Shown here in pieces: positions 48,731-52,346 of a DNA stretch of 64,000 nt. Source of the stretch: an uncultured Planctomycetia bacterium. GTDB taxonomy: Bacteria; Omnitrophota; Gorgyraeia; Tantalellales; Tantalellaceae. A model generated the notes under the pieces. The model was given only the letters and a program-made list of their open reading frames with translations, was not told the origin of the DNA and made no database searches. The first letter of the stretch is position 1. Each line of letters begins with the position of its first letter. The position numbers and the translations under genes are program-made. The stretch is from positions 267,587-331,586 of the forward strand of contig CAZNEE010000001.1 in the NCBI GenBank assembly GCA_964572255.1, given 5' to 3'.

Positions 48731-49489
48731 ATGGCAAGATCACAAGTCACCAGATCCCTTAACATCAAACTCACCATTGCTTACGACGGCACTCACTTTA
48801 AAGGCTGGCAGAGACAGGCCAACGGTAAGACTATCCAGGGAGAGATCGAAAAAGCTATAGAAAAAGTCTTTGGCAAGCATCATGTTCTTTATGGCGCAAG
48901 CCGTACCGATTCCGGTGTCCATGCCAAAGCTCAAGCCGCGAATTTTAAAATAAATTCTTCCATCCCTACAAGTAAGATCCCTACAGCTTTAAATGCCTGT
49001 CTTTCCGAAGACATAGCCATAATAAAAGCGGAGGAAGCCGGGGCGGATTTTCATTCCCGTTTTGACGCTAAAATAAAACATTACAGGTACTTTATCTTGA
49101 ACAGTCGCAATAGAGACCCTTTTAATGAAAAATATTCATGGAGAGTTCCTTACAAGTTAAACGTGCCTCTTGTGCGAAAAGAAGCAAAAGTTTTGATAGG
49201 CAAGCACGATTTCAAGTCATTCCAGGCGACCGATAAGATAGAAAGGTCTTCGGTGAGAAAAATATCCCGCCTTAGCATAAAAAAAGAGAAGAACCAGTTA
49301 ATCGTTGATATTGAAGCTGACGGTTTTCTGTACAACATGGTAAGGAACATCGTCGGTACTCTTGTAGATATAGGAAGGGGATATCTTCCTGAAGGAAGCA
49401 TGAAAAAGATCTTAAAGGCAAAAGACCGCACAAAAGCCGGCCCCACAGCTCCCGCCAAGGGACTGTTTCTCGTAGAAGCGAAATATTAA
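48731..49489 (+). CDS. truA: tRNA pseudouridine(38-40) synthase
   Basis: IAYDGTHFKGWQ and the catalytic-Asp region GASRTDSGVHA. Confidence 0.9.
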   Translation: MARSQVTRSLNIKLTIAYDGTHFKGWQRQANGKTIQGEIEKAIEKVFGKHHVLYGASRTDSGVHAKAQAANFKINSSIPTSKIPTALNACLSEDIAIIKAEEAGADFHSRFDAKIKHYRYFILNSRNRDPFNEKYSWRVPYKLNVPLVRKEAKVLIGKHDFKSFQATDKIERSSVRKISRLSIKKEKNQLIVDIEADGFLYNMVRNIVGTLVDIGRGYLPEGSMKKILKAKDRTKAGPTAPAKGLFLVEAKY

Positions 49490-49537
49490 AAAGTTAACAA
49501 ATTCTGTCTTATAATTTTTCTAAAAAAATTTGATAAA

Positions 49538-49645
49538 AAATAGTAAACCATTCGGAAGGATGGGGCACAAAGCCAGAGGGGGCTAAAGAGGGGAAAGGCC
49601 CAGCCGGCTGCCGTTTGGAGCACTACCGTAAAAAGTGTGAAAAAA
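49538..49645 (+). promoter_or_regulatory. c-di-GMP-I (GEMM) riboswitch aptamer, copy 1
   Basis: GUAAACCAUUCGGAAGGAUGGGGCACAAAGCCAGAGGGG...CCAGCCGG matches the GEMM core: a P2 hairpin with a GNRA-type loop (CCAUUC-GGAA-GGAUGG), the conserved (A)CGCAAAGCC-like junction, and a P3 with GCC...GGC. Compared from memory with V. cholerae Vc2. Confidence 0.65.
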
Positions 49646-49660
49646 CAGGTTTATTGTGCA

Positions 49661-49692
49661 GACCCAACCTTTTCAATGGTTGGGTTTTTTGT
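49661..49692 (+). terminator. Intrinsic terminator (riboswitch expression platform): ACCCAACC-TTTTCAA-TGGTTGGGT followed by TTTTTTGT
   Basis: An 8-9 bp stem followed by a T-run, read directly. Lies 35 nt upstream of the RBS AAGTGAGGTG. Confidence 0.6.
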
Positions 49693-49726
49693 CCTGAAAA
49701 TCTAAAAAGAAAGTGAGGTGATTTAA

Positions 49727-50290
49727 ATGAAGAAATTATTAATTGTAGCTGGTATTTTGATAATGATATTTTTAGCAGCAGAATCTTCTAAAGCAGACGA
49801 ATGGGATTCTGTTTCGATAACAGGGATAGATGAAAGGTCTGCACAACTTGAGGTTGAAGGGTCTGACGCGTCCGGGAATTACGACCCAGAAAGTGTTACC
49901 AGATCATCGCCTGAAGGTTTCGTAATAGAATATGACGCTTTTTTTTCGTGGCCCGATGGTAACCCGCCCCCGACCACAGTAGGTGTTGTCAGAATGGCCA
50001 TGGTTGGTTATCCTGAAGTAGCCGAAGTTCCTATTGCTGGAGTTGTGTTCGTTGAAACACCCCCTGGCAGCGATATTTACAAAGGTACATATACCACCAC
50101 ACATTATGATGGGACGGGGACATGGATAGTAGAAATTGAATTTCAGATTAACGATCATACTTTTCCAGCTGATAATGAATATTATGCTACTGTAAAAGGA
50201 ACATTTATACCTGAACCAACAACAATCATATCGCTCCTATTAGGCGGATTAGGTTTGGCGGTAAGAAAAAGATTTAAGTTTTGGGGATAA
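49727..50290 (+). CDS. PEP-CTERM sorting-domain protein (secreted, acidic), predicted exosortase substrate
   Basis: Signal peptide. C-terminal IPEPTTIISLLLGGLGLAVRKRFKF is a PEP motif plus TM plus a basic tail. Confidence 0.7.
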   Translation: MKKLLIVAGILIMIFLAAESSKADEWDSVSITGIDERSAQLEVEGSDASGNYDPESVTRSSPEGFVIEYDAFFSWPDGNPPPTTVGVVRMAMVGYPEVAEVPIAGVVFVETPPGSDIYKGTYTTTHYDGTGTWIVEIEFQINDHTFPADNEYYATVKGTFIPEPTTIISLLLGGLGLAVRKRFKFWG

Positions 50291-50462
50291 GATAACATAA
50301 AAGGTCATTTTAGATGAAAAAGTTCATAAAAAAGAACTTAAAATTCTTTAATGGGTTTTTTGTCTAAGTCATTTCAAAAAAACCACATAGAACACTTCTA
50401 AGAAAACACATCGAATACTTCAAAACTTAACAAATTTTGTTAAGTTATTATTAATAGAAAAT

Positions 50463-50491
50463 TTGCGATTATTATAATTATATGGTATACT
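50463..50491 (+). promoter_or_regulatory. Candidate sigma70 promoter TTGCGA-17-TATACT driving riboswitch copy 2
   Basis: Read from sequence. The TSS would lie about 40 nt before the aptamer. Confidence 0.4.
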
Positions 50492-50537
50492 TTAAGTGAA
50501 AGTAAAGTGAGAAGTTTTTTGACAATCTATTTATTAA

Positions 50538-50645
50538 AATAGTAAACCATTCGAAAGGATGGGACACAAAGCCAGAGGGGCCGAAACAGTTTGAGTGGAG
50601 GCCAGCCGGTTATCGTTTAAAAGCACTATCGTAAAAGTGCGGAAG
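50538..50645 (+). promoter_or_regulatory. c-di-GMP-I (GEMM) riboswitch aptamer, copy 2
   Basis: AGUAAACCAUUCGAAAGGAUGGGACACAAAGCCAGAGGGGCC...GGCCAGCCGG. The P2 loop is GAAA (GGAA in copy 1). The 5' half is near-identical to copy 1. Confidence 0.65.
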
Positions 50646-50662
50646 AACTTAACCTCTGTTAG

Positions 50663-50697
50663 AGACCCGACCTTTCGATGGTCGGGTTTTTTGTTTT
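50663..50697 (+). terminator. Intrinsic terminator (riboswitch expression platform): GACCCGACC-TTTCGA-TGGTCGGGT followed by TTTTTTGTTTT
   Basis: Stem plus T-run read directly. Lies 5 nt before the RBS AAAGGAGGTG. The stem base pairs covary with the copy 1 terminator (A·T in copy 1, G·C here). Confidence 0.6.
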
Positions 50698-50712
50698 AAA
50701 AGGAGGTGTGTG

Positions 50713-51552
50713 ATGAGGAAGATTGCTATTATTTTTGTGTTATTTCTTATTTTTGGTTTTATGATTTCTTTATCTTCAGACGCCAGGATTATTTTGGATG
50801 CAAATTACCCAAAATACGGCGGCGCAAACTATTACCTGGAAGATGTGGATGCCCCGGTAACAGAAGAGGATGTGGACGATTGGTATACTTCTGGATTTAT
50901 TCCCGACGGCACTCCGCCGGTACCTGTATGGGTGGATGAGTATCAATATGTGATCACCGATGAACCGTACGAGTATGAACAGTATTTCAGCGGATGGATG
51001 TGGGCTTTTGATCAACATATGGATTATCCTCCTTGGGAAGAGTATGTAAATAATTATAATCACATGTATCCGGATTACACTCCGGATAATTCACTCTACA
51101 ACGGTGTTGATGGAGATCTGATCTTCGATTTCGTTGTATTCATGGATGATGGATATTACGGCGGATTACTTGAAGTCCAGCTGTGGGCTTATAATTTGAT
51201 GGAGCCCTGGACAGAGCCTGAGATGGTAGCGTTCGAATGGTTTGGGGCTATACCGGAAGAGCTTATGGGCGAACCATACGCCCATCATTATCCAATAGAA
51301 GCTGAGGGCGAATGGGTATGGTATTGGTATCAAGTGCATATGGATATACCATACAATCTGGCCGGATATGAGTGTTGGCTGCAGATAGCGCAGATAGGAG
51401 GAATAGGCGCACCTTATGGAGCTACGGTATACGGCGTATTCGGCGATGAACCTGCTTGGTTGAACGGAGGTGAACCGGTACCCGAACCGGCAACGATAAT
51501 TTCTCTGCTTTTTGCGGGTCTTGGGTTGGCAATAAAAAGGAAATGGTTTTAA
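50713..51552 (+). CDS. PEP-CTERM sorting-domain protein, extremely acidic and Trp/Tyr-rich
   Basis: Start taken as the ATG 5 nt after AGGAGGTG (the ORF-track GTG at 50710 is also possible). Signal peptide. C-terminal VPEPATIISLLFAGLGLAIKRKWF. No known domain. Confidence 0.7.
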   Translation: MRKIAIIFVLFLIFGFMISLSSDARIILDANYPKYGGANYYLEDVDAPVTEEDVDDWYTSGFIPDGTPPVPVWVDEYQYVITDEPYEYEQYFSGWMWAFDQHMDYPPWEEYVNNYNHMYPDYTPDNSLYNGVDGDLIFDFVVFMDDGYYGGLLEVQLWAYNLMEPWTEPEMVAFEWFGAIPEELMGEPYAHHYPIEAEGEWVWYWYQVHMDIPYNLAGYECWLQIAQIGGIGAPYGATVYGVFGDEPAWLNGGEPVPEPATIISLLFAGLGLAIKRKWF

Positions 51553-51586
51553 ATATATAGGAGGCGATTCGGGAAGGAGGTCCGGT

Positions 51587-52222
51587 ATGAAGAATTTAAT
51601 TTTGGGACTTATAGTTATTTTTATTTTAGCTGCAGTTTCCCATCTTTGCGCGGAAGCTGCTGTAGTAGGCATTGACGCTTTTAATGCCGGCGGAAACCTG
51701 TTTTTTGGAAATCTGACAGATCCTGAAGAAGGCTGGTATATTGAAACGGTAGGAGGTACTCCAGTCGCCGGTGTTGTTGATCTTGAAGGCATGCCTATAA
51801 TGAGATTTTACAACTCAGGCATAGTTGTTTATCACGATGGCGGAGGGTACCTGGGCCCAGGGGATGAAGTTCTGTTTAACGGGTATGTCAATAACGAGAA
51901 TGCAGGTCTGGCTTTTGCATTAGTTGAACCATACACTGGCGGAGTTGTCGCTACGTACCCGGCAGATTATAACTTTTTAGGGCCGGGTGAACATATCATT
52001 ACCGGACAAAAGATGCAAGTTCCGCTGGACTGGGTAGATCCATATGGGAGCCCTGAATCGTATTTCTACGTAGGTCTTTTAGGCGACGTCGGCACCTATG
52101 CGCAAGGTAGATATGGGTCTTTGGGAGGCGATGTAATCCCCGAACCGGCAGCGGTGCTTACCATGATATTTGTGGGATTTGGATTGTGCAAAAAGAAGCT
52201 CTTGAGCATATTGAACTTATAA
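51587..52222 (+). CDS. PEP-CTERM sorting-domain protein (Gly-rich)
   Basis: Signal peptide. C-terminal VIPEPAAVLTMIFVGFGLCKKKL. RBS GGGAAGGAGG. Only 34 nt after the previous gene, so probably co-transcribed. Confidence 0.7.
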   Translation: MKNLILGLIVIFILAAVSHLCAEAAVVGIDAFNAGGNLFFGNLTDPEEGWYIETVGGTPVAGVVDLEGMPIMRFYNSGIVVYHDGGGYLGPGDEVLFNGYVNNENAGLAFALVEPYTGGVVATYPADYNFLGPGEHIITGQKMQVPLDWVDPYGSPESYFYVGLLGDVGTYAQGRYGSLGGDVIPEPAAVLTMIFVGFGLCKKKLLSILNL

Positions 52223-52246: not shown

Positions 52247-52275
52247 TTGACAAACCCTGCCAAATGTGTTATTTT
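52247..52275 (+). promoter_or_regulatory. Candidate promoter TTGACA-17-TATTTT with an extended -10 TG, upstream of rplM
   Basis: Read from sequence. Confidence 0.35.
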
Positions 52276-52346
52276 CTACACTCTATGAATCACTCCAGAT
52301 CAGATGGTTTGGAGTGGTTTATTTTAGTCTATAGGAGTCAGATCTT

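Follow-up and report, generated by a model that had tools for sequence, protein, structure and literature searches.

Tandem GEMM-I-class riboswitch cassettes ahead of PEP-CTERM-tailed genes in an uncultured bacterium

Described systems and the place of this locus

An association between riboswitches for cyclic di-GMP (c-di-GMP) and genes for PEP-CTERM proteins is not new, as it has already been reported in Methylophaga (PMC12530212). The subject here is a locus of an uncultured bacterium, located in a 64-kb stretch of contig CAZNEE010000001.1 (assembly GCA_964572255.1; the whole of this stretch is referred to as the window), in which two leaders, units 1 and 2, stand ahead of three genes, genes 1 to 3. 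Both units are GEMM-I-class aptamers (Rfam family RF01051), each coupled to an intrinsic terminator ahead of a PEP-CTERM-tailed gene, and the locus is best explained as two independent cassettes, each made of a promoter, an aptamer, a separate intrinsic terminator, a Shine-Dalgarno sequence and a gene, with unit 1 controlling gene 1 and unit 2 controlling genes 2 and 3. The locus adds a further example of an already known regulator and reveals no new kind of regulator. What it offers is a clean, internally replicated case of cyclic-dinucleotide riboswitches gating PEP-CTERM (exosortase-type) cargo in an uncultured organism, with a link that was previously noted in annotation tables only now seen in three paralogous cassettes with compensatory changes. 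Most worth following are the different pockets in adjacent paralogues (A20/C92 and A20/U92, in the numbering of the Vc2 riboswitch) and the predicted expression platform, in which the aptamer helix P2 would be invaded.

As to the mechanism, the system to compare is the Cd1 riboswitch of Clostridioides difficile, upstream of flgB (PMC9262584), which, like the units described here, belongs to RF01051, has a separate terminator that can coexist with the aptamer, and draws its antiterminator from aptamer nucleotides. In Cd1, however, it is the 3' (P1) strand of the aptamer that pairs with the 5' strand of the terminator, whereas in the present units this role is predicted for the P2 tetraloop, the P2 3' arm, and J2/3; in addition, Cd1 possesses G20 and precedes flagellar genes, whereas the units here possess A20 and precede PEP-CTERM genes. 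As to the pocket, the GEMM-Ib switches of Geobacter (Gs1761/pgcA, Gmet_0970, pilM; PMC6140456, PMC6456294) share with this locus the fold, A20, the control of extracellular or surface proteins, and the presence of several copies per genome. They differ in being ON switches whose terminators overlap the aptamer and whose selectivity has been measured, and in belonging to another lineage, whereas here the pocket is read from the sequence. The combination of A20 and U92 that is natural in unit 2 is found in Vc2 G20A/C92U (PDB 3MUV; PMC7288161, PMC9049102), which, however, is a laboratory construct with c-di-AMP (cyclic di-AMP) binding, to which unit 2 is likened by its bases only.

As to the cargo, in Methylophaga nitratireducenticrescens GP59 riboswitches of the c-di-GMP type, lined up close together and each leading a PEP-CTERM / VPLPA-CTERM gene, have been tabulated in the vicinity of polysaccharide genes (PMC12530212, Table 4). 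This organism, however, is a gammaproteobacterium, the description is at the annotation and transcript level only, with no analysis of pocket or platform, and the proteins are unrelated to those described here. Another example is presented by CD2831 and CD3246 of C. difficile, where a riboswitch likewise directly gates proteins with a C-terminal sorting signal for a dedicated enzyme, although in a Gram-positive organism, with an LPXTG-type sortase instead of the PEP-CTERM/exosortase pair, and with positive regulation by c-di-GMP (PMC4591827). At three Clostridia loci (L012, L029, and L090) we observe a first downstream open reading frame (ORF) that ends in PKTGD or similar, a hydrophobic helix, and a basic tail, and these sortase-type signals echo the known c-di-GMP control of sortase substrates. 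The association between GEMM-I and PEP-CTERM is real but uncommon: a PEP-CTERM-type tail within 2.5 kb downstream, as searched by regular expression, is present at 0 of 119 other GEMM-I loci in a genome-scan sample that is biased by the search pattern, and thus the association is not general in that sample.

Aptamers, their duplication, and the ligand pocket

The presence of a GEMM aptamer in both leaders, proposed in a preliminary description of this DNA, is borne out by covariance-model scores, judged against the RF01051 gathering score of 35 bits. When the whole window was scanned with Rfam, unit 1 matched at 49532-49615 (48.7 bits, E-value 1.8e-6) and unit 2 at 50531-50617 (57.5 bits, E-value 1.3e-8), both on the plus strand, as are all directional features described below, and both with E-values far below 1e-3. 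At the gathering threshold these two were the only Rfam matches in the window, with no tRNA. P2 is at 49548-49563 in unit 1, with the tetraloop GGAA, and at 50547-50562 in unit 2, with the tetraloop GAAA. The P2/P3 architecture is the one expected of GEMM-I, with P2 capped by a GNRA tetraloop and P3 having one pair that covaries in three units, and with a poor fit in distal P3. The junction, on the other hand, had been given as ACGCAAAGCC, and it actually reads GCACAAAGCC / ACACAAAGCC.

The two units are diverged duplicates, also in agreement with the earlier reading, the leaders being 81% identical by alignment column, and the duplication reaches into the promoter-like region (49479-49532 versus 50412-50465, by repeat analysis). 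One pair of the terminator stem has changed in a compensatory manner, from CCCAACC/GGTTGGG in unit 1 to CCCGACC/GGTCGGG in unit 2. A metagenome scan for the exact sub-family pattern returned one further locus, L126, from the same community but on another metagenome contig (Ga0180437_10065373), downstream of a glycogen phosphorylase fragment, where a promoter-like TGGTATACT, an RF01051 aptamer (51.7 bits) with the P2 tetraloop GUAA, a terminator, and a ribosome-binding site (RBS) precede the gene for a protein of 177 amino acids that passes the PEP-CTERM model TIGR02595 (22.4 bits). Among unit 1, unit 2, and L126, one P3 pair reads G-C, C-G, and U-A (GGGC..GCCC, GGCC..GGCC, and GGUC..GACC), and the terminator pair reads A-U, G-C, and A-U. 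A strain variant, L004, carries 6 substitutions in the 313-nt upstream region of unit 2, all within 14 nt just 5' of a palindrome described below, and its palindrome, promoter, aptamer, and terminator are identical to those in the window (100%). The compensatory substitutions in P3 and the terminator, together with the conservation in L004, speak for selection acting on RNA structure and for duplication of the cassette as a unit. A collapsed leader copy at 50317-50364 likewise points to the cassette as the duplicating unit. Its first part, AAAAAGTTCATAAAAAA, matches 49524-49540 with 88% identity, its second part, TGGGTTTTTTGTC, repeats the 3' end of the unit 1 terminator without a change, and the whole looks like a cassette that has lost its aptamer. 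The window sequence is also present on contigs of JGI 3300018080, 3300017963, and 3300029267, of Logan SRR14699969, and of ENA ERZ27256783.

These data also bear on the possibility that the aptamers are decaying relics, the hairpins acting as constitutive attenuators or terminators without ligand control. The receptor-like distal P3 fits the Rfam consensus poorly, with the tetraloop receptor and distal P3 carrying non-canonical marks in the alignment, P1 is weak, being short and A/U-rich, with conservation that is not clear on direct reading, and the collapsed remnant indicates that cassettes do decay at this locus. However, both aptamers score 14-22 bits above the gathering threshold, the P3 and terminator substitutions among the three paralogues are compensatory, the conserved core positions besides 20 and 92 are all intact in an alignment of 66 sequences, and the leader is perfectly conserved in the diverged strain. 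We consider decay very improbable.

As to the pocket, we take positions 11, 38, and 83 of the covariance model to correspond to G20, A47, and C92 of Vc2, an offset of 9 being consistent for all three. Position 11, a conserved G located directly 5' of the P2-closing helix, is A in unit 1 (49542), unit 2 (50541), and L126, and thus the two units lack the G20 that is a feature of the c-di-GMP-I class, and carry instead the A at the Vc2 G20 / Gs1761 A14 equivalent by which GEMM-Ib is recognized. Of the 66 aptamers taken from the genome scan and aligned with MAFFT, 54 have G at this position, 11 have A, and 1 has C; the 122 raw pattern hits comprise 103 with G, 16 with A, and 3 with C. In contrast, A47 (A at model position 38; 49569 in unit 1 and 50568 in unit 2) and C44 of the C44:G83 pair (C at model position 35) are present in both units and in 66/66 aligned aptamers. 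The C92 position is occupied by C in unit 1 (49611, from the cmscan alignment and sequence reading) and by U in unit 2 (GGUUAUCG, 50613, from the cmscan alignment), and the finding of the unit 2 sequence GGTTATCG in four independent assemblies confirms U92. Of the 66 aptamers, 5 have U92, and unit 2 alone among them also has A20, as read from the alignment columns. Four natural aptamers combine G20 with U at the C92 position (CUGUCG / UUGUCG) and so present a further variant of the pocket, with no obvious ligand; these belong to metagenome-assembled genomes (MAGs) of an uncultured delta proteobacterium (L066), of Geobacter (L125), and of Nitrospirota lineages (L071 and L087).

In c-di-GMP, G-alpha is recognized by G20, and G-beta forms a Watson-Crick pair with C92. 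The riboswitches for cyclic GMP-AMP (cGAMP), known as GEMM-Ib, carry A at position 20 (PMC6140456), the bases at 20 and 92 determining specificity for c-di-GMP versus cGAMP versus c-di-AMP (PMC6140456, PMC6456294, PMC7288161). The presence of A20 in both units and of U92 in unit 2 makes c-di-GMP as the ligand not secure. The direct control by c-di-GMP proposed in the preliminary description holds as far as the GEMM-I class and its coupling to terminators are concerned, and the ligand itself was an assumption; put most cautiously, what is sensed is a cyclic dinucleotide. Judging from the bases in the pocket, recognition of 3',3'-cGAMP, or dual recognition of c-di-GMP and cGAMP, appears as likely as recognition of c-di-GMP alone.

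Stated as an explanation of its own, the proposal is that these are GEMM-Ib-type switches outside Geobacter, sensing 3',3'-cGAMP or both cGAMP and c-di-GMP. A20, which distinguishes the cGAMP riboswitches, is shared by all three cassettes and is infrequent elsewhere, as counted above, and the A20G substitution shifts the selectivity of Gmet_0970 from cGAMP to c-di-GMP (PMC6456294). Vc2 G20A binds both ligands (Kd 53 and 120 nM), as do some natural A20 switches, which makes dual recognition plausible. Against selectivity for cGAMP, these bispecific natural examples indicate that A20 is necessary and not sufficient (PMC6140456), and canonical RF01051 is still the best Rfam model within the clan for both aptamers when the sub-regions are rescanned. 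We regard this proposal as a tentative one, with somewhat less than even chances. It is doubtful that the two units differ in their ligand, with unit 1 sensing cGAMP or c-di-GMP and unit 2 sensing either c-di-AMP, which is bound by the engineered Vc2 G20A/C92U (PMC7288161, PMC9049102), or cGAMP in a different register. If true, this would mean that one recent tandem duplication has produced adjacent switches placing sister surface-protein genes under different cyclic-dinucleotide signals, a natural snapshot of the evolution of riboswitch specificity and possibly a class of natural ligand that is new to the GEMM-I fold. The adjacent A20/C92 and A20/U92 pockets are in any case natural test cases for discrimination among c-di-GMP, cGAMP, and c-di-AMP.

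Terminators and the predicted switching logic

The order of aptamer, terminator, RBS, and gene proposed previously is found in both units, with hairpins, U-runs, Shine-Dalgarno sequences, and ORFs all located. The unit 1 terminator (49660-49693) is composed of AGACCCAACC, the loop UUUUCAAU, GGUUGGGUUU, and a U-run (hairpin 49660-49687, -15.4 kcal/mol), and the unit 2 terminator (50661-50697) of AGAGACCCGACC, the loop UUUCGAU, GGUCGGGUUUUU, and a U-run (hairpin 50661-50691, -17.0 kcal/mol). The stems are of 10 and 12 bp, respectively, each is followed by 6 U, and the RBS is located 3' of the U-run in both units. As the terminators are complete hairpins about 45 nt 3' of the aptamers, aptamer and terminator can coexist.

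The predicted antiterminator strand of unit 1 (49553-49571) is made of the P2 tetraloop, the P2 3' arm, and J2/3, and pairs with 49653-49677, and that of unit 2 (50551-50563, UCGAAAGGAUGGG) pairs with the 5' arm and loop of the terminator (50666-50678); the complementarity of P2 and terminator was found independently, as inverted repeats, in both units. The duplex of the terminator 5' arm and loop with the P2 tetraloop, 3' arm, and J2/3 is predicted at -19.4, -17.6, and -16.7 kcal/mol in unit 1, unit 2, and L126, respectively, compared to -6.0 kcal/mol for the P2 hairpin by itself. The corresponding values are -9.8, -10.0, and -7.4 kcal/mol with the 3' half of the aptamer and -7.3, -8.8, and -3.2 kcal/mol with the linker, and the segment from the P2 tetraloop to J2/3 is thus the one strong partner among the candidates. 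Competition between a ligand-stabilized P1 and the terminator 5' arm, which had been suggested as the feature to look for, gives way to competition with the P2 tetraloop and 3' arm, the role of the P1 3' strand being ruled out by the weak pairing of the aptamer 3' half (-7 to -10 kcal/mol). The linker as an antiterminator, which would produce ON logic, is ruled out by its own weak pairing (-3 to -9 kcal/mol). The A-to-G change in the unit 2 terminator maintains both its pairing with the 3' arm, compensated by U to C, and its pairing with the U of GGAUGGG, where U-A becomes U·G.

In the unit 1 transcript ending at 49677 and in the unit 2 transcript ending at 50679, the antiterminator is the minimum free energy (MFE) structure (-40.7 versus -37.2 and -41.2 versus -34.5 kcal/mol, respectively, the second value in each case with P2 forced), and once the terminator 3' arm has emerged, P2 plus terminator becomes the MFE structure in both units. 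This shift of the MFE structure with transcript length is, as modeled, the transiently stable antiterminator behavior described for Cd1. The complementarity also extends beyond the locus. Among 65 GEMM-I leaders with terminators, the cognate pairing of P2 and terminator has a mean of -11.49, versus -10.48 for permuted pairs (standard deviation 0.28), with 0/5000 permutations as low, and the window terminators rank among the best 1.6-3% for their own P2 segments. Three Omnitrophota leaders that differ in tetraloop or P2 arm have terminators with the corresponding complement (GUAA:UUAC in L101, GAGA:UCUC in L091, and another in L084), and this recurrence of the predicted P2 invasion via the tetraloop, with compensating sequence, may be useful for experiments.

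Co-transcriptional folding has been studied in two switches of the GEMM-I type, the experimentally established OFF switch Cd1 and the ON switch pilM (PMC9262584). The antiterminator of Cd1 competes with a terminator that can coexist with the aptamer, and a Cd1-like OFF response is predicted here from the separate terminator and from the complementarity of its 5' arm and loop to P2 (tetraloop and 3' arm). With RNA polymerase in the terminator, the 5' arm and loop would invade the P2 hairpin, starting at the GNRA tetraloop as a toehold, and the antiterminator so formed would allow transcription to read through. With a dinucleotide bound, P2 and J2/3 would be locked in the folded aptamer and the invasion denied; the 5' arm would then pair with its own 3' arm, resulting in termination, and high ligand would mean less PEP-CTERM protein. 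We put the probability of this explanation, of two cassettes each acting as a Cd1-like OFF switch, at about 0.6, based on modeling and analogy.

The same elements might instead follow ON logic, the ligand preventing termination and high dinucleotide inducing the PEP-CTERM proteins. Such a response would agree with the usual association of c-di-GMP with matrix and biofilm, as expected for PEP-CTERM proteins associated with extracellular polysaccharides (EPS). The A20 switches of Geobacter are ON switches (PMC6456294, PMC9262584), and in Methylophaga most of the riboswitch-led PEP-CTERM transcripts are higher in biofilm (PMC12530212). However, pilM and other ON switches have a terminator that overlaps the aptamer, the two folds being mutually exclusive (PMC9262584), whereas here the terminator is self-contained and 45 nt downstream. 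Moreover, as no segment of the linker complements either terminator arm, the ligand-bound aptamer offers nothing to block the terminator. ON logic at this locus seems unlikely to us.

As to the two-cassette OFF explanation, a number of points weigh against it, in addition to the poorly fitting distal P3 and the weak P1 mentioned above. The call of OFF over ON is one from thermodynamic folding, comparison, and analogy, and for proteins associated with a matrix it runs against intuition that c-di-GMP should turn expression OFF. In the modeled pathway P2 folds first and must be invaded, so that read-through would depend on kinetics. The permutation test draws on sequences that lack phylogenetic independence, and when the cognate P2 is ranked among other P2 sequences on the same terminator the rank is modest (0.11-0.25 for the window units). 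In L126 the tetraloop complementarity is lost, with AAGGAUGGG:CCCAACCUU and CACAAA:UUUGUG remaining. Neither the window nor the 10 kb downstream yielded an exosortase.

A different arrangement is observed in six leaders from Omnitrophota MAGs (L033, L056, L076, L082, L096, and L109), in which a long P1, GCCGAUAAAG ... CUUUAUCGGC, is directly followed by a U-run. From their sequences, these look like a different and very compact OFF design, in which the ligand-stabilized P1 would itself serve as the terminator stem.

Cargo proteins and genomic neighborhood

Gene 1 (49727-50290) encodes a secreted orphan of 187 amino acids with the PEP-CTERM tail IPEPTTIISLLLGGLGLAVRKRFKFWG and is preceded by the RBS GTGAGGTGA; gene 2 (50713-51552; RBS AAGGAGGTG) encodes an acidic, aromatic-rich secreted orphan of 279 amino acids, also with a PEP-CTERM tail; and gene 3 (51587-52222) encodes a secreted orphan of 211 amino acids with the degenerate PEP-CTERM-like tail IPEPAAVLTMIFVGFGLCKKK plus LLSILNL. 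As noted before, 34 nt separate gene 3 from the end of gene 2, and the two are probably co-transcribed. Gene 1 is followed by no convincing terminator (fold z-score -1.84), and thus read-through from unit 1 into unit 2 is possible.

Of the three PEP-CTERM genes described previously, genes 1 and 2 pass TIGR02595 of NCBIfam (25.1 and 21.5 bits, cutoff 16) and remain slightly under the cutoff of Pfam PF07589 (19.8 and 18.5 bits, cutoff 20.7). Gene 3 falls short: the whole protein matches neither model, and with the 7 extra C-terminal residues trimmed it reaches 13.3 bits with TIGR02595, below 16. Pairwise BLASTP nevertheless aligns its tail with those of genes 1 and 2 (E-values 4e-5 and 3e-6), and in the translations all three proteins end in a PEP motif, a hydrophobic helix, and a basic cluster (IPEP...RKRFKFWG, VPEP...IKRKWF, and IPEP...CKKKLLSILNL for genes 1, 2, and 3). 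All three N-termini are basic and then hydrophobic, a signal peptide being judged by eye only. Tails aside, the three proteins show no mutual relation by pairwise BLASTP. Among 5.8 billion proteins, searches for homologues returned only the query itself, and hence no function can be assigned to the cargo; an exhaustive HMMER search with gene 2 against 1.84 billion representatives returned matches to the tail or to low complexity only, and an AlphaFold2 model of the gene 2 protein, made without alignment, is unusable (predicted local distance difference test score 45.5). The cargo is made of species-specific secreted orphans, with bona fide PEP-CTERM tails in two and a degenerate tail in one, and from these tails the products are presumed to be exosortase cargo, their dependence on an exosortase being one that we infer.

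The module is located between asd-truA and rplM-rpsI-argC, with genes for arginine and lysine biosynthesis next, and all genes in the window are on the plus strand. The preliminary description stated that neither an exosortase nor an EPS partner is in the window, and this stands for the exosortase; it overlooked, however, a surface-glycan biosynthesis cluster of 30 kb at about 1-30 kb of the window, with lower G+C (0.34-0.38 at its ends). This cluster encodes a Polysacc_synt_3 flippase, many glycosyltransferases of GT2, GT4, and GT9, a Bac_transf priming transferase, a Wzy_C protein, and PMT-like proteins, along with two or three sulfotransferases and with methyltransferases. The Wzy_C protein matches the model of the exosortase-A-associated O-glycosylation ligase weakly (55.8 bits versus a cutoff of 188). 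Genes for GGDEF, EAL, and CD-NTase proteins were not found in the window or in the 10 kb downstream.

Promoter-like sites precede both units. That of unit 1 (49486-49515: TTAAAA, a spacer of 18 nt, and TATAAT) is a consensus match only, and falls in a segment that is duplicated 5' of unit 2 (70% identity); that of unit 2 (50463-50491: TTGCGA, a spacer of 17 nt, and a TG-extended TATACT) comes from a consensus scan, and its -10 context, TGGTATACTTT, recurs in L126 and in the Omnitrophota leaders L033 and L076. The promoters and leaders of the window also show likeness to those of L084, L091, and L101 of Omnitrophota, and these resemblances hint, no more than weakly, at an Omnitrophota origin. 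Just 5' of the unit 2 site is a perfect palindrome with arms of 11 nt (50424-50446, AACTTAACAAA-T-TTTGTTAAGTT), and a related AAGTTAACAAATT at 49491-49503 overlaps the -35 region of unit 1. By its sequence, the palindrome may be an operator through which a dimeric regulator would add a layer of control to that of the riboswitches.

One more structure is located downstream of the module, between a promoter-like site at 52247-52275 and the start codon of rplM. This is a very stable hairpin of 17 bp at 52285-52322 (-27.4 kcal/mol, z-score -4.65), with no Rfam match, followed by AUUUUAG, and it could be the terminator of the operon of genes 2 and 3, an autoregulatory leader for L13 (rplM), or both.

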